38,805 nt of DNA. Source: an uncultured Candidatus Saccharibacteria bacterium (GTDB taxonomy: Bacteria > Patescibacteriota > Saccharimonadia > Saccharimonadales > CAYOYH01). The notes under the pieces were generated by a model. It was not told the origin of the DNA, ran no database searches, and saw only the letters and a list, made by a program, of their open reading frames with translations. The DNA lies in NCBI GenBank assembly GCA_964408165.1, contig CAYOYH010000001.1:1-38805 (forward strand). The letters run 5' to 3'. This document shows, piece by piece, positions 27,320 through 32,245 of the stretch. The position numbers and the translations under genes were made by a program. Positions within the stretch are counted from its first letter, which is position 1, and every line of letters begins with the position of its first letter.

Positions 27320-27763
27320 CTATCGTCTAAACCCCAGCGCTTCTTTGACTAGTGGGTGAAGGTTTTCGGGAAGCTGACTAATGTCAAACCAGCCCGCTTC
27401 GATTATCTCAGGACGGCGCACTACAAAAACCTCTTTTTGAGGCAACGAAACCTCAAAAACAACTACTGGAAAAACGACGGTGTCTTCGTGCTGTCTAGTT
27501 CTTAGGATTTCTCTGAGCAATCCAGGATCTACACTCACATCTAACTCTTCGGCTATTTCTCTGCTCAAACCCTGATTCGGCGTCTCCCCACGGTGAAGAC
27601 CGCCACCCGGCAGAACCCATTTCTGTAGTCCAATCCAGTTACGAAGCAGTAGTACTTCGTTTTTGTAAATTATTAATCCGCGAGTGCGCAACTTTCTGGA
27701 TATAAACAAACGGACAAAAGGCTTGGCGACAAAAAAGATAAATCGTCCAATTCTTTCGCTCAC
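27320..27763 (-). CDS. NUDIX hydrolase
   Basis: Nudix box GGGLHRGETPNQGLSREIAEELD. GTG start overlaps the pcrA stop by 1 nt. Confidence 0.85.
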   Translation of the reverse strand: MSERIGRFIFFVAKPFVRLFISRKLRTRGLIIYKNEVLLLRNWIGLQKWVLPGGGLHRGETPNQGLSREIAEELDVSVDPGLLREILRTRQHEDTVVFPVVVFEVSLPQKEVFVVRRPEIIEAGWFDISQLPENLHPLVKEALGFRR

Positions 27764-30700
27764 TAAGCTTTTTCCAGTGGCGCAAAAGCAACGTTAAGCT
27801 TCTTGGTGCCGCGAGCACCGAACTTTATTTCCGCAGTTTGTCCGTCTACACCCTTAACGATCCCAACACCAAACACTGGGTGTCTAACTCGGTCACCACA
27901 GTGAAGATTTATCGGCGCTTCCTGAGCGTCGTACTCGACAGTCGGCTCGCTACCAGCCATTTCAAGGTCGCCTGCCGCTGAGACTTCCGAATCTATCTCG
28001 CTCAAAAACCGCGACGGAGCATTGTGTTGCACTGCACCATAAAGCAGTCGATTGCCGGCGTGAACCAAGTGCAACTCTTCTTTAGCTCGGGTCATGCCAA
28101 CGTAGCAGAGCCTTCGCTCCTCCTCCATTTGCGCCTGTTCCCAGAAAGCTCTGGAATGAGGAAATATACCCTCCTCCATACCAGCCATAAACACCACTGG
28201 AAATTCGAGCCCTTTTGCCGCATGCAGTGTCATCAAAGTAACGGCATCGGCTTTGGTATCGTAGCTATCGATGTCGCTAAGCAAAGCTACTTCCTCTAAA
28301 AACCCGTCTATGCCGAGTTCGACATATTCATGCGCCACCGACAGCAGTTCCCGCACATTCTCAATTCTTGATTCGCCCTGCAGGGTTTTATCGTCCAGAT
28401 AGTCAAAATAGTTGATCTGGCGAATCAACATATCTAGCACATTTTGAAGCGACGCGTCCTGCGAATATTCACGCAATTTTTCTAGTAACTGCGCTAACTC
28501 AACTAAGCCTTTTAGAGCTCGCTTGGTGAGTTTCGGGTGGGTTGCTACTTGGTTCATAGCCTCTGGCAAACTAAGCCCCGAAGCCTCCTGCCAGGAAAAA
28601 AAGCTCTCCAACGATTTGGCGCCAACACCCCGAGCAGGAACATTGACGATACGCAGGAAACTAACCCTGTCACTAGGCTGATACATCAAGCGCAGGTAGG
28701 CCACGATATCCTTAATCTCTTTACGGTCATAAAAACGCACCCCGCCGACAATGCGATATGGCACTCCGTATTGAACAAAGGCTTCCTCCAGCGCCCTGGA
28801 CTGAGCGTTGGTGCGGTACAAAACAGCGAAATCGCTATATTTTCTTTTGCCCCTGCTCACTGCTGAGCGAACTGCCCGTATGACATGCTCGCCTTCTTCT
28901 CGTTCGCCGCGGACACTCTCCACCTGCACCGGCAAACCAGCCTGGGCGTCGGTCCAAAGCTCTTTTTTTGAGCGACTTTGGTTTTTGGTAATTATCTGGT
29001 GGGCAGCGTCCAGTATCGACTGCGTAGAGCGATAATTTTGTTCGAGCTTGATGAGCGTAGTGTCAGGATAGTCTTTCTCGAAATTCAAAATATTGCGATA
29101 ATCCGCCCCGCGCCAAGAATAGATTGAATTATGCACAACCACATTTGCGGCTACGTAGTTATGCACCTGGTCGATGTCTAGGTCATACACTTCGCCACTG
29201 AAGCTGTCTTTACTGACTTCGACCACTTTGTCGTTGATAATTTTACCTTTTTTCATCACTGGCAACTCCATGCCGGCGTGAACTTGCCCAGCGGGCATGA
29301 ATGAGTATTTTTTATCAGAAATATTGGCAAATTTATTCACCTGCATTATTTCCTTATTCGCCGCTACCCTGTCGAGCAATTGTTCGATCTTTCCAAAATC
29401 TTTACTAAACACTTCTACGCGATAGGTTCCTTGTTTGCCTTGTCTCACATTTAGGCCCAGTTTTTCGAAAACTTTTAGGTCTTTTTTACTGGTGGTATTG
29501 ACCGATAATCTACTTGCAGACCAAGGGCTGGTAGTAGATATGCGTCTATCTCCAAAAAGTACAACATTTAGATTGACTCGCTTTAACCCATTGCGCACGG
29601 TCGCCTGAGGCTGGAAATGTGGATATTGAAAATTAATTGTTAAATCGCTCATTAGTTTTTGGGCTCTGTCTTTTGTATCTATTTCGGAAAAAATCGAGTC
29701 AATATATTTTTGGTCAAACTTCATTTGCCTGTTGGAATAAGCATGGAAAAGGAGCATTGGAATTCCGTATTTATACGAATACAAAGACTCCCAATAAAGA
29801 GCTTCTTGTCGGTTGGCACAAATTTTCAACACCCACATTCGATCAGCTCTTTCTTGATTGGCACGAACGCGTAGTCCGCTGTCGTACCCTCTTCCATCGC
29901 TGCGCGAACCTTTAGTGATTCCGATCCTGTAACCCTTGCCGCGCGAATACATTAAATACACAAAGTAGCCCTCTATTTTACCCCCCCTAGCGAACAGAAG
30001 ATGGTTTGGCGTAACGCGCAACTTCTGGTTTGAAGCTGTTTTAATAACCACCACGGCACCTTGGTATTTAAACTTGCGCAACTTCGTAACCTCAAAAAAC
30101 CCTGTTTTGCCGTAGCCACTCGCTGAGTGCACCATGTCGCCTTTTTTTACGATTTCAATATTCATCTCGCCGTTAGCAGTTTTAACTTTTGTGCCAGGAA
30201 GGAGGCATTGCCAGTCGTCGCCCACAACACAGATATTTTGATGTTTCTTGGCTAAAATTTTCACCAGCTGATACTGCGCAGCGTTAGTGTCTTGGTATTC
30301 GTCTATCAAGATATGTGAAAAATGCTTCTGCCATTTGGCGCGAACCTTCGTAGAACTTTCCAGCATCTGAACCGTTTTTTGCAACAAATCGTCAAAATCC
30401 AGCGCATTGGCTTCTTTGAGTAGTTTCTGGTAGACAACAAACACATCAGCGACTACCTTTTGGTTTGGTGTAGAGGCAGTAGCGGTGTAGTCTGACGGGC
30501 TCAGCATTTCGTTTTTAGCGCTGGAAATTAGACTAGCCACAGTTCTGGGCGCGTATTGCTTGGGATCAATACTAAGGCGTTTCATAGATTCTTTAATTGC
30601 CGCCGTCTGGTCTAGCGTGTCGAAAATGACGAAATTAGCTGGAATCGATATGTGTTCGCCATCTAGGCGTAAGAGGCGTACGCAGATAGAGTGGAAAGTC

Positions 30701-30975
30701 CCCATGAACGGCATCCAGCCACGGTTTGGGGCGGACTGTGAAGAACCGGTCATGAGTTCGTAAACTCGATTGCGCATTTCACCAGCCGCTTTATTGGTAA
30801 AAGTGACCGCCAATATATTCTCTGGAGCAATGTTTTTTTCACTCACCAAATAAGCGATGCGGTGCGTCAGAGTTTTGGTTTTACCACTGCCGGCACCAGC
30901 TAAAATCAAAAGCGGTCCATCGGTTTGTTGGACAGCCTTTTTTTGCTGATCGTTTAACCCCTCGAAAATATTCAC
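27763..30975 (-). CDS. pcrA: PcrA/UvrD-family ATP-dependent DNA helicase interrupted by an intein
   Basis: AGAGSGKT, ILIDEYQDTN, VVGDDWQ / SIYSWRGAD split, YRSTQ, VMTLHAAKGLEF, YVGMTRAKE, C-terminal HPVFGVGIV Tudor-like tail. GTG start. Confidence 0.9.
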   Translation of the reverse strand: MNIFEGLNDQQKKAVQQTDGPLLILAGAGSGKTKTLTHRIAYLVSEKNIAPENILAVTFTNKAAGEMRNRVYELMTGSSQSAPNRGWMPFMGTFHSICVRLLRLDGEHISIPANFVIFDTLDQTAAIKESMKRLSIDPKQYAPRTVASLISSAKNEMLSPSDYTATASTPNQKVVADVFVVYQKLLKEANALDFDDLLQKTVQMLESSTKVRAKWQKHFSHILIDEYQDTNAAQYQLVKILAKKHQNICVVGDDWQCLLPGTKVKTANGEMNIEIVKKGDMVHSASGYGKTGFFEVTKLRKFKYQGAVVVIKTASNQKLRVTPNHLLFARGGKIEGYFVYLMYSRGKGYRIGITKGSRSDGRGYDSGLRVRANQERADRMWVLKICANRQEALYWESLYSYKYGIPMLLFHAYSNRQMKFDQKYIDSIFSEIDTKDRAQKLMSDLTINFQYPHFQPQATVRNGLKRVNLNVVLFGDRRISTTSPWSASRLSVNTTSKKDLKVFEKLGLNVRQGKQGTYRVEVFSKDFGKIEQLLDRVAANKEIMQVNKFANISDKKYSFMPAGQVHAGMELPVMKKGKIINDKVVEVSKDSFSGEVYDLDIDQVHNYVAANVVVHNSIYSWRGADYRNILNFEKDYPDTTLIKLEQNYRSTQSILDAAHQIITKNQSRSKKELWTDAQAGLPVQVESVRGEREEGEHVIRAVRSAVSRGKRKYSDFAVLYRTNAQSRALEEAFVQYGVPYRIVGGVRFYDRKEIKDIVAYLRLMYQPSDRVSFLRIVNVPARGVGAKSLESFFSWQEASGLSLPEAMNQVATHPKLTKRALKGLVELAQLLEKLREYSQDASLQNVLDMLIRQINYFDYLDDKTLQGESRIENVRELLSVAHEYVELGIDGFLEEVALLSDIDSYDTKADAVTLMTLHAAKGLEFPVVFMAGMEEGIFPHSRAFWEQAQMEEERRLCYVGMTRAKEELHLVHAGNRLLYGAVQHNAPSRFLSEIDSEVSAAGDLEMAGSEPTVEYDAQEAPINLHCGDRVRHPVFGVGIVKGVDGQTAEIKFGARGTKKLNVAFAPLEKA
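29128..30207 (-). mobile_element. 360-aa intein in helicase motif III (residues 257-616)
   Basis: Starts CLLPGTKV, has block B VTPNHLLF, and ends VYDLDIDQVHNYVAANVVVHN followed by Ser+1. Excision restores DDWQSIYSWRGA. Confidence 0.85.
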
Positions 30976-31414: not shown

Positions 31415-32245
31415 TTAGCTTAATGCAACCAAAGAAGCTAAATCGATTATCTCTAGTTCACTCAACACATAGGCCGTGGCTAAAATGACTACCAAAACAG
31501 CGATGAACACCTTGATAGATCCGCTTTGGCGGTGATGGTGACTGATTTTTATAGGTACATGATACTGCTTGGTGTCGAAGGTTTTGAGCGCCTCACCTCC
31601 TGAGGCACCAATGGTTCCTTCTGTTGATTTTGCATTAGGTATCTGAGCCTCTAGTTCGTCGGTATTGCCTGGGCTCTGCTCGGCAAGAACAGGATTTGAC
31701 GGTAGGGTCTTGATGACAGGTTTTTCTGGCTCTAGTTTTTTCTTTGGCGCTGCCTCAGCTTCTTCTTTGGCCGGCTCCCTCTGCTTTAGTTGCAACTCCT
31801 CAGTCATCGGCTGGTCTTGAATTTTTTTGGACTCTTTTGTCTTTAGTGGTGGTCTCACAACCACATCCACAATAGACCTTGCCGTAGGCTTAGGCATTAC
31901 TTTGACCGTATCATTGGCCGACTCACCGATTGGCTTAAGTTTAGTGTTGGAAACAAGCATAGTCTGACTCTCCCCTTTTCCGGGAGATGCGATACTAGTT
32001 TTTTCATCTTTTTTTACGTAGGCATTTCTTGTGACAATCTTAATGTCACCGGCAACTTCTTTGGACTGTTCTTGCTTCTTGATTGTGGAAGCTGGCTCAT
32101 TTTCAACAATAGTCTTCGAGGCTGGTTTTTCCATCAGCTTTGGTCTAGTGGCTATCTCGTCCATATGAGCGTCAATAGCCGCTGACAGCTCGTCGATAGA
32201 CATGTCTTCGTCATTGTTATCTTGGGGTGTGTCCTTGGCTGTCAT
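31415..32245 (-). CDS. hypothetical tail-anchored, Lys/Glu/Pro-rich low-complexity protein
   Basis: 276 aa with a single C-terminal TM helix (IKVFIAVLVVILATAYVL). Starts 3 nt downstream of the tpiA stop codon. Confidence 0.55.
   Translation of the reverse strand: MTAKDTPQDNNDEDMSIDELSAAIDAHMDEIATRPKLMEKPASKTIVENEPASTIKKQEQSKEVAGDIKIVTRNAYVKKDEKTSIASPGKGESQTMLVSNTKLKPIGESANDTVKVMPKPTARSIVDVVVRPPLKTKESKKIQDQPMTEELQLKQREPAKEEAEAAPKKKLEPEKPVIKTLPSNPVLAEQSPGNTDELEAQIPNAKSTEGTIGASGGEALKTFDTKQYHVPIKISHHHRQSGSIKVFIAVLVVILATAYVLSELEIIDLASLVALS

Follow-up and report, generated by a model that had tools for sequence, protein, structure and literature searches.

A motif III intein in a Saccharimonadales PcrA helicase and its widespread, unannotated central domain with a GIY-YIG-like core

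What kind of endonuclease, if any, does an intein carry when its central region resembles none of the annotated homing enzymes? The question is raised by a PcrA/UvrD-type helicase gene of an uncultured Candidatus Saccharibacteria bacterium (order Saccharimonadales), located in the 38,805-nucleotide (nt) stretch of DNA analysed here as a whole and called the window (positions 1 to 38,805, forward strand, of contig CAYOYH010000001.1 in assembly GCA_964408165.1). The gene encodes a superfamily 1 (SF1) helicase precursor that is interrupted by an intein. Judged from its sequence, the element would be classified as a known type, a bifunctional intein, with a different, unannotated and very widespread endonuclease-type insert. 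On balance, we favour the explanation that it is a mobile class-1 intein with a GIY-YIG-type nuclease module in the PcrA protein of Saccharimonadales.

The intein and its empty site

An earlier note, made from the letters of the window alone, had described a 360-amino-acid (aa) intein at 29128-30207 in motif III of PcrA/UvrD, with a GIY-YIG- or T5orf172-like central domain. The gene and the element are composed of the following parts, in which intein residue numbers, here and throughout, count from Cys1 of the insert.

27763..30975, minus strand: PcrA/UvrD-type SF1 helicase precursor gene, complete, 1070 aa including the intein (open reading frame (ORF) listing; PF00580, PF13361, PF21196, TIGR01073)
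30208..30975, minus strand: N-extein, helicase aa 1-256, ending in VVGDDWQ, the first half of motif III; the junction is identical in the intein-free locus L084
29128..30207, minus strand: class-1 intein, 360 aa, from Cys1 to His-Asn, followed by Ser+1
29980..30207, minus strand: N-terminal Hint region, intein aa 1-76, with block A Cys1 and block B T66-P-N-H69 (TIGR01445 over aa 1-72; predicted local distance difference test (pLDDT) 90-97)
29743..29979, minus strand: N-module, intein aa 77-155, with a GIY-YIG-like beta-beta-alpha-beta-alpha core (AlphaFold, conservation, sub-threshold PF01541, BFVD matches)
29608..29742, minus strand: helical linker, intein aa 156-200, with helices 166-175 and 178-188 and then a YPHF.PQ motif
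29317..29607, minus strand: C-module, intein aa 201-297, beta-beta-alpha-beta-beta-alpha(-beta), putatively DNA-binding (predicted secondary structure, weak Foldseek matches)
29128..29316, minus strand: C-terminal Hint region, intein aa 298-360, with blocks F and G (VYDLDID..VHNY....VVVHN; PF14890 over aa 264-360)
27763..29127, minus strand: C-extein, helicase aa 617-1070 and stop codon, starting with SIYSWRGAD, the second half of motif III

The insert corresponds to residues 257-616 of the precursor, exactly nt 29128..30207 on the minus strand; it begins with CLLPGTKV and ends with VVVHN, after which the helicase continues with SIYSWRGAD. Coordinates, junction residues and intein models above their cut-offs all bear out the placement proposed in the earlier note, and the splicing residues that it listed (Cys1, TPNH, the terminal His-Asn and Ser+1) are all present. 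Removal of the 360-aa insert in silico yields, as it had also stated, a 710-aa helicase with a contiguous motif III, VVGDDWQSIYSWRGAD, also given as ICVVGDDWQSIYSWRGADY. We take 'motif III' of SF1A helicases to be the sequence GDxxQSIYxFRGA, as is established for the family; the insertion point lies between its Gln and Ser, that is, between GDDWQ and SIYSWRGA. The precursor is identical to database protein P0165. Its Pfam UvrD-helicase N-terminal domain ends at residue 257 and UvrD_C picks up at residue 642, while TIGR01073 (PcrA equivalog) scores 839.5 bits on the precursor, split over two stretches. The GC content is 42.6% in the intein versus 48.8% in the exteins.

Searches with Hint and intein models gave matches above the cut-offs for PF14890 (Intein_splicing; 56.3 bits, E 4e-15, cut-off 35.8) and TIGR01445 (intein_Nterm; 31.2 bits, cut-off 24.5) on the insert, and for TIGR01443 (intein_Cterm; 16.0 bits, cut-off 15.6) on the full protein. 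Residues C1, T66 and H69 of the N-terminal region and D342, H349, N350, H359 and N360 of the C-terminal region are invariant in 79 Saccharibacteria-type inteins. Among PDB sequences, the matches are to mini-inteins (Npu DnaB and Pho RadA, for example), in their C-terminal splicing blocks. The AlphaFold model for the complete insert (pLDDT 85.4; predicted template modelling score (pTM) 0.84) has PI-SceI and VMA inteins as its best Foldseek matches in the PDB (E 5e-7) and reaches a target-normalised TM of up to 0.84 against mini-inteins and Hedgehog Hint domains; this comparison is uninformative on the central insert, since the splicing domain dominated the matches. That the 360-aa insert is an intein is practically certain, and its intact splicing residues, together with the Hint fold of the model, predict that it splices. 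Its organization is that of PI-SceI/VMA1, PI-PfuI and the Mtu RecA intein, in which the Hint domain is likewise interrupted after block B by an insert of ~230 aa and Cys1, TxxH, His-Asn and a +1 nucleophile are found. Inteins of UvrD are known from a 2015 survey, which counted 16 in Acidobacteria, Actinobacteria, Deinococcus-Thermus, Firmicutes and Proteobacteria (PMC4760082), so that a UvrD/PcrA intein as such is ordinary.

The insertion is not a chance reading, as a syntenic ortholog has the precise empty site. This closest ortholog, P0166 at locus L084, is 86% identical and contains an uninterrupted motif in which GDDWQ runs directly into SIYSWRGA. The gene order of L084 is that of the window (PGK, TIM, a small unannotated ORF, PcrA, NUDIX and a G5/DUF348 protein). 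Around the junction, the 30 flanking aa of the two proteins are identical except for one K/E change 14 residues upstream, and the 90 nt that flank the insertion point are 78% identical. Intein-free pcrA alleles are not limited to L084: the 119 next-best PcrA homologs (86% to ~60% identity, from sources named Saccharimonadales) are all 687-748 aa long, and because of this length they can be regarded as intein-free.

A genome scan that covered one genome per species, with two narrow patterns seeded by a 14-sequence alignment, found the central domain at no fewer than 174 loci of species-representative genomes. The best 80 of these at least 174 loci belong almost entirely to Saccharimonadales, with one genome of candidate division Kazan in addition, and 78 of the 80 contain a complete in-frame intein of 354-363 aa. 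The intein is thus common in Saccharimonadales yet missing from every one of the 119 close relatives of the window's PcrA. In this respect it resembles LAGLIDADG inteins, which also occupy conserved ATPase motifs of DNA-metabolism proteins and are sporadic, with empty-site alleles.

The central domain and its GIY-YIG-like N-module

The central region comprises 227 aa (intein aa 74-300). It has no match at E <= 10 in Pfam, NCBIfam or PHROG, the LAGLIDADG, HNH, GIY-YIG and T5orf172 families included, and none among PDB sequences. A regular-expression search found no LAGLIDADG-type or GDG motif in it, and for HNH there is no Pfam, NCBIfam or PHROG match and only one weak match in BFVD (E 0.07). 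Profile scans and motif search therefore agree with the earlier observation that no LAGLIDADG or HNH motif is visible here. What had been missed in that description of a ~250-aa region is its bipartite make-up, with a second alpha/beta module, and the very large family to which it belongs. A nested endonuclease ORF within the intein is not in evidence; the lone antisense ORF (92 aa, TTG start, 29637..29915, plus strand) was not scanned. Antisense endonuclease genes do occur in some phage inteins, but the ORF seen here is short.

To determine the extent of the family, 1.84 billion cluster representatives (clusters at 50% identity) were searched exhaustively with a profile built from 14 relatives. 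Of the representatives, 1772 matched at E <= 1e-3; with the stricter limits of 1e-10 and 1e-30, the numbers were 1091 and 210. Among the best 150, the domain nearly always lies in UvrD/PcrA-like helicases of ~1000-1100 aa, between a GDxxQ that is followed by the first Cys of the intein and a terminal HN that is followed by [S/C]IY.[F/W]RG. Giant SF1 helicases of 1800-2500 aa contain two or three inteins of the family at separate motifs, with three types of insertion site: DE(A/C).. followed by C, GDDKQ followed by C...HN and then SIY, and TxH followed by C/S. Copies outside motif III of these giant helicases consist of the N-module only, with or without part of the remainder. Phage members were found in BFVD, where a DNA helicase and a methyltransferase-annotated protein carry the domain (E 2e-13 to 4e-8). 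Because Pfam, NCBIfam and PHROG contain no model for the domain, the annotation of thousands of PcrA/UvrD genes names nothing but a helicase, of seemingly aberrant size; a profile for the domain would correct this.

Two observations on single members may be added. The giant multi-intein helicases P0051, P0066, P0073, P0080, P0099 and P0137 include some that have a LAGLIDADG-type intein in the P-loop as well. In the predicted 332-aa protein P0053, a class-I aminoacyl-tRNA synthetase is represented by its C-terminal end (KMSKS...), fused directly to the GIY-YIG-like module at an 'LFAR' junction; the protein lacks the N-terminal Hint region, has a frameshift-like end and is probably the product of a misassembly or rearrangement.

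Modelled alone from a 58-sequence alignment, the central domain gives a confident AlphaFold prediction (pLDDT 91.1, pTM 0.83). The model of the N-module consists of a strand at 81-88 (YFVYLMYS), a strand at 92-99 (GYRIGITK), a short variable hairpin, a helix at 111-119 (LRVRANQER), a strand at 123-130 (RMWVLKIC) and a helix at 133-147 (RQEALYWESLYSYKY). The residues that mark the module are Y84 (in FVY), Y93-R94-I-G96, R115, E119, D122, W125, E140 and Y147-G-x-P150. The strings from which a GIY-YIG pattern had been read in the earlier note, GYFVYLMYSRGKGYRIGITKG, LRVRANQE and RQEALYWESLYSYKYG, all occur within intein aa 80-148. Residue conservation was counted over 174 divergent copies from clusters at <=50% identity, as follows.

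Y84: 165/165, in strand 81-88, F/Y-x-Y84-L-M
M86: 169/169
R94: 167/169
G96: 169/169
R115: 167/169, in helix 111-119
E119: 166/169
D122: 154/169, with Glu in 12 more
W125: 167/168
E140: 165/167, in helix 133-147
P150: 165/167

Tyr, Arg-Ile-Gly, Arg and Glu are hence near-invariant at the canonical GIY-YIG positions, namely the Tyr of GIY, the YIG motif, the Arg of helix 1 and the C-terminal Glu; the stretch equivalent to YIG reads G-[Y/F/W]93-R94-[I/V]-G96. In the GIY-YIG fold, three strands lie amid helices, and the GIY and YIG motifs are followed by a central Arg and a C-terminal Glu (PMC1564403), with which the predicted beta-beta-alpha-beta-alpha order of the N-module is compatible. Mean pairwise identity among the 79 Saccharibacteria-type inteins is 71% in the N-module core, as compared with 51% and 52% in the N- and C-terminal splicing regions, 54% in the C-module and 53% in the linker. 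As the best-conserved part of the intein, the N-module is unlikely to be a decaying or merely structural insert, and conservation of a nuclease module above the splicing module is unusual under the homing-cycle model.

Two database comparisons are in line with a GIY-YIG-type core. PF01541 (GIY-YIG) was matched at E <= 10 by 17 of 157 members, comprising 7 of 58 single members (best E 0.0025) and 10 of 99 in a separate set, the N-modules of other cluster representatives (best E 2.8e-4), all sub-threshold. The family consensus is colinear with this profile over positions 1-68 of 78 (E 0.026-0.047). Scans of the 58 members against PHROG and NCBIfam gave scattered noise only. In a Foldseek search of BFVD, six GIY-YIG or homing-endonuclease entries stand among the weak matches that follow three true homologs (E 7e-3 to 0.1): a Pithovirus intron GIY-YIG endonuclease, a GIY-YIG protein of phage vB_EcoM_F1, a SegE-like protein, a GIY-YIG protein of mycobacteriophage Yoshi, a GIY-YIG-like endonuclease of Harvfovirus and a T-even 'homing endonuclease' (phage JEP6).

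Several results weigh against this assignment. All PF01541 matches stay under the gathering score (14-15 bits for the consensus, with a cut-off of 22.6), and the window's own copy has no PF01541 match at all. The recurrence of PF01541 cannot be counted as independent evidence, because the queries are homologous and another family, PF14183 (YwpF), recurs too (2/58 and 3/99, together 5/157; E 0.02-0.08). YwpF is the only recurrent Pfam family outside the GIY-YIG clan, the rest being matches of single members, and its similarity is probably a chance one that is common to the members. With the central-domain model as query, Foldseek retrieved nothing from the PDB at E <= 1e-3, and GIY-YIG structures are missing from the top 50. 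With hhalign, the N-module profile reached probabilities of at most 3% against seven GIY-YIG proteins (T4 I-TevI, I-TevII, SegA/F/G and EndoII; E. coli UvrC) and likewise against E. coli YhbQ; ranked among 70 decoy T4 ORFs, the seven were not discriminated, and the top alignment of UvrC lay outside its GIY-YIG domain. Against profiles of an I-TevI clade (27 sequences from viral contigs) and a YhbQ clade (60 sequences from metagenomes), the values were 0.9% and 1.5%. The residue pattern also departs from the canon: an Arg occupies the position of the YIG Tyr, with the neighbouring Y93 replaced by Phe or Trp in 55 of 169 copies, the residue four after the helix-1 Arg is Glu where the canon has His or Tyr, and the canonical C-terminal Asn is absent.

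The hhalign negatives weigh little, since the positive control, the I-TevI clade against the YhbQ clade, itself reached only 44.7%. The best local alignments show the expected registers, with E140 placed on Glu75 of I-TevI and FVYLMY..YRIGIT on FLYLIR..LYTGIT. Semi-global hhalign runs with column shuffles aligned the ends and were uninformative, and a MAFFT alignment of seven divergent GIY-YIG domains was too poor for a profile.

The departures from the canon, the non-significant profile-profile tests and the missing PDB match at E <= 1e-3 would all fit a genuine nuclease of a new fold family that has converged on the GIY-YIG motif pattern. In such a case, however, one has to explain why the strands, helices and residues follow the Pfam GIY-YIG profile colinearly in order and spacing, why the GIY-YIG clan gives the clearly recurrent sequence matches, and why GIY-YIG proteins recur among the structural matches in BFVD; we regard a new fold as improbable. 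The earlier GIY-YIG reading is partly supported, by the predicted topology, the near-invariant Tyr/Arg/Arg/Glu, the PF01541 recurrence and the BFVD matches, and is left without an above-threshold match or a significant hhalign result. As several lines of evidence converge, each weak alone, we consider it likely that the N-module belongs to the GIY-YIG superfamily. The alternative assignment to T5orf172 is not supported: PF10544 is matched by 2 of the 99 members (sub-threshold, E >= 0.046), by 0 of the 58 and not by the window copy. The T5orf172/MUG113 families, a branch of the GIY-YIG clan, have a KIGxT motif, to which YRIGIT of the window ('x-[KR]-I-G-x-T') is similar.

The N-module shares its general plan with I-TevI, I-TevII, I-BmoI and the T4 Seg proteins. 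These enzymes begin with a catalytic module of ~80-100 aa, to which strand 1 contributes a Tyr, strand 2 the motif x-[IV]-G, helix 1 an Arg and the helix behind strand 3 a Glu. DNA is bound by a separate and exchangeable region that is attached through a linker, and the enzymes are associated with mobile elements in DNA-metabolism genes. Unlike them, the window's module is in frame within an intein, has Arg for the YIG Tyr and no conserved Asn, and lacks the NUMOD, zinc-finger and helix-turn-helix DNA-binding modules; sequence similarity is sub-threshold. Compared with I-TevI, it is ~10 residues longer between strand 2 and helix 1 and has no equivalent of the second helix.

GIY-YIG enzymes have been described from group I introns and free-standing genes and as 'not in inteins' (PMC1564403, 2006), and later as 'not known to be present in inteins' (PMC2677866, Dassa et al. 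2009). A 2025 survey of non-canonical intein endonucleases reports in-frame HNH, antisense LAGLIDADG or Vsr-like and out-of-frame EndoVII-like enzymes (Gosselin et al., 10.1101/2025.01.02.630785), and this preprint mentions GIY-YIG only in a list with older citations. The elements of that survey are comparable to the window's intein in their non-LAGLIDADG recruitment and in their phage and helicase-type hosts, whereas none of the HNH, Vsr-like and EndoVII-like classes matches its insert. In the literature covered, outside of which most subscription journals lie, nothing specific was found on PcrA/UvrD inteins, Saccharibacteria inteins or a combination of GIY-YIG and Hint, and a prior description is possible. 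Should the N-module prove to be an active nuclease of the GIY-YIG type, inteins would employ a class of enzymes that the searchable literature denies them, and with more than 1000 sequence clusters this class of GIY-YIG-like inteins would be no rarity.

Horizontal spread, decay and free-standing relatives

Pairwise identities of inteins and exteins are only weakly correlated (Spearman 0.28). The clearest discrepancy involves the Kazan genome (L018, METE01000011.1), whose intein is 61-69% identical to those of the Saccharimonadales loci L004-L083, versus 44-51% for the exteins. This comparison indicates that the intein passed horizontally between candidate phyla. At the same PcrA site, P0013 lacks the N-module and linker owing to a clean in-frame deletion, which joins LLFARWDKT directly to PHFLPQATTRNG and leaves the C-module in place (A1 columns 355-480). 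From its sequence, P0013 looks like the endonuclease-loss stage of the homing cycle.

In two free-standing proteins, P0087 (362 aa) and P0108 (367 aa), Cys1, the block-B His and the His-Asn end are gone, but the N-module still has its Tyr, Arg-x-Gly, Arg, Glu and Glu, which points to a function apart from splicing. Their Hint scaffold is degenerate, with sub-threshold PF14890 remnants only. The genes of P0108 and P0087 are located as follows.

L126, 927-2030 and 2031-3560: P0108 gene and gene of a 509-aa UvrD-like helicase
L127, 1154-2257 and 2258-3787: P0108 gene and gene of a 509-aa UvrD-like helicase
L125, 577-1665: P0087 gene

The stop codon of the P0108 gene abuts the start of the 509-aa helicase gene on at least two independent contigs. 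Motif III of the adjoining helicase reads FDEKQGIFAFRGA, with Gly at the position where inteins need a nucleophile, and P0108 may represent a free-standing homing endonuclease whose neighbouring target is resistant. A related case is the yeast HO protein, a free-standing intein-derived nuclease with a LAGLIDADG domain and a zinc finger. Similar to HO, P0087 and P0108 retain a degenerate Hint scaffold and the central domain after loss of the splicing residues; they differ from it in their GIY-YIG-like module and, for P0108, in the position beside a UvrD-like helicase gene. Free-standing homing endonucleases such as the T4 Seg proteins sit next to their likely target genes (PMC1564403).

The patchy distribution, the inter-phylum transfer and the free-standing copies argue for an active homing nuclease. 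They also bear on a different explanation, in which the central domain would be a conserved non-nuclease, either a DNA/nucleotide-binding or regulatory domain that makes PcrA splicing conditional or a scaffold, and ordinary recombination would spread the intein. Such a role would agree with the lack of any nuclease family above threshold and with a degree of conservation, above that of the splicing domain, that is odd for a selfish endonuclease, and arguments have been made for a regulatory significance of the clustering of inteins in the ATPase motifs of proteins for repair and replication (PMC4760082). It has to contend with the 119 intein-free nearest PcrA homologs, the transfer between phyla, the presence of the same module in inteins at up to three helicase motifs of one protein, and the free-standing copies without splicing residues that adjoin helicase genes. 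Because these four features are the classic signatures of a homing endonuclease, the latter is favoured. Furthermore, the residues that are invariant in the N-module (Tyr, Arg, Arg, Glu, Asp, Glu) are of the polar or charged kind that makes up an active site. We therefore rate a non-nuclease role as a poor prospect.

The combination of an intein with a GIY-YIG-type nuclease at one locus, in replication and repair genes including helicases, also characterizes the 'fractured genes' (PMC2677866). There, a separate GIY-YIG or Vsr-like ORF lies between the halves of a split intein, whereas the window encodes a single polypeptide with a cis-splicing intein; the loci L209 and L210, also unlike fractured genes, are frameshifted genes. 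A split-intein or 'fractured gene' reading was considered for the truncated proteins P0017 and P0007, whose helicase genes are in three ORFs, and was rejected; the breaks, some of which lie outside the intein, indicate frameshifts.

As a side observation, the intein-bearing helicase genes of L209 (3501-6737, on a 294-kb contig) and L210 (2593-5874, on a 112-kb contig) are split into three ORFs, with breaks within and outside the intein. Either the assemblies contain frameshifts, or a helicase that is normally essential is present as a pseudogene.

The C-module and a proposed model of homing

The N-module is followed by the helical linker, in which T178, P196, H197, F198 and P200 are invariant in the 79 Saccharibacteria-type inteins, and by the C-module. 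Family members inserted elsewhere have no C-module or none with recognisable similarity, and in the third intein of P0051 the linker runs straight into the C-terminal splicing region without a C-module. GIY-YIG homing endonucleases combine a conserved catalytic module with an exchangeable, target-specific one (PMC2677866). By analogy with these enzymes, and because it is exchangeable between sites, the C-module is most likely the part that binds DNA sequence-specifically, with a predicted fold like a LAGLIDADG lobe or SUI1.

This fold assignment derives from the Foldseek search of the PDB with the central-domain model, whose best matches are the LAGLIDADG meganucleases I-OnuI, I-LtrI, I-SmaMI, I-PanMI and I-CpaMI, interspersed with eIF1/SUI1. 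The meganuclease matches are weak (E 6e-3 to 0.09; local alignments of 82-97 columns, root-mean-square deviation (rmsd) 4.6-5.0 A, probability 0.82-0.93), and full-length alignments have a query-normalised TM of ~0.22 and an rmsd of ~17 A. SUI1/eIF1 fits the C-module about as well as a LAGLIDADG lobe does. The C-module consensus meets PF14528 (LAGLIDADG_3) at E 0.026, which is sub-threshold, and none of the 58 individual members does. Between the N- and C-modules, no similarity was detected (hhalign probability 1.6%), and an internal duplication was rejected on this result.

These matches invite the reading that the whole central region is a degenerate two-lobed LAGLIDADG endonuclease, which would have lost both of its helices, would be dead or use a derived mechanism and would show GIY-YIG motifs by coincidence. 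In its favour, monomeric meganucleases are the best fold matches in the PDB, the C-module consensus meets LAGLIDADG_3, and LAGLIDADG enzymes are by far the commonest endonucleases of inteins (10.1101/2025.01.02.630785). The details do not agree with it: there is neither a LAGLIDADG/GDG motif nor a helix ahead of the first hairpin, 0 of 58 members match LAGLIDADG_1, _2 or _3, and the poor full-length alignments leave room for one lobe at most. The two modules are mutually dissimilar, and the N-module has one strand after its helix where a LAGLIDADG lobe has two. Moreover, invariant Tyr/Arg/Arg/Glu/Glu residues and conservation above the splicing domain are a misfit with decay, and some members consist of an N-module without a C-module. 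A degenerate LAGLIDADG enzyme is thus unlikely, if slightly less so than the non-nuclease and new-fold alternatives. Compared with the inserts of LAGLIDADG inteins, that of the window is bipartite, lacks LAGLIDADG motifs and helices and is better conserved than the splicing domain, and its best-conserved part is a beta-beta-alpha-beta-alpha unit with Tyr/Arg/Arg/Glu/Glu.

In the favoured explanation, a mobile intein with a GIY-YIG-type nuclease module, we infer splicing, nuclease activity, the geometry of cleavage and the parts played by the catalytic residues. Once the precursor has been translated, its Hint domain (Cys1, Thr66/His69, His359-Asn360, Ser+1) would excise itself and religate the 710-aa helicase. 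The excised intein would then bind the intein-less coding sequence of motif III via its C-module, possibly aided by the Hint domain, and the N-module would cleave this empty pcrA allele in a metal-dependent manner, as GIY-YIG homing endonucleases do. In catalysis, Tyr84 could act as general base, Arg94 and Arg115 could stabilise the transition state, and Glu119 and Glu140 could bind the metal. Recombinational repair from the intein-bearing allele would finally copy the intein in.

A more speculative extension, which we hold only tentatively and consider rather doubtful, is that the central domain is a natural chimera of a GIY-YIG-type catalytic module, a helical linker and a catalytically dead, LAGLIDADG-derived DNA-binding lobe. 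It would then be the natural counterpart of the engineered I-TevI/meganuclease fusions. Equally tentatively, the chimera could stand for a very large unrecognised class of intein endonucleases at three or more SF1 motifs in bacteria (notably Saccharibacteria) and phages, and perhaps, with as much reserve, for a source of the free-standing homing endonucleases beside helicase genes.

Within this one family, in-frame copies at several motifs occur together with C-module-less, nuclease-deleted and free-standing forms, which makes the acquisition of endonucleases by inteins testable. In addition, a compact, monomeric and modular nuclease with a long conserved target (motif III) would be a candidate scaffold for genome engineering.

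Apart from the intein, the small ORF next to the helicase gene in the window has unusual features.

31415-32245, minus strand: ORF of 276 aa between TIM and PcrA, Lys/Glu/Pro-rich and of low complexity, with a hydrophobic C-terminus

In L084, the same slot is occupied by an ORF of 300 aa without a Pfam match. The coding strand of the 276-aa ORF shows a strong AT skew, which goes down to -0.45.

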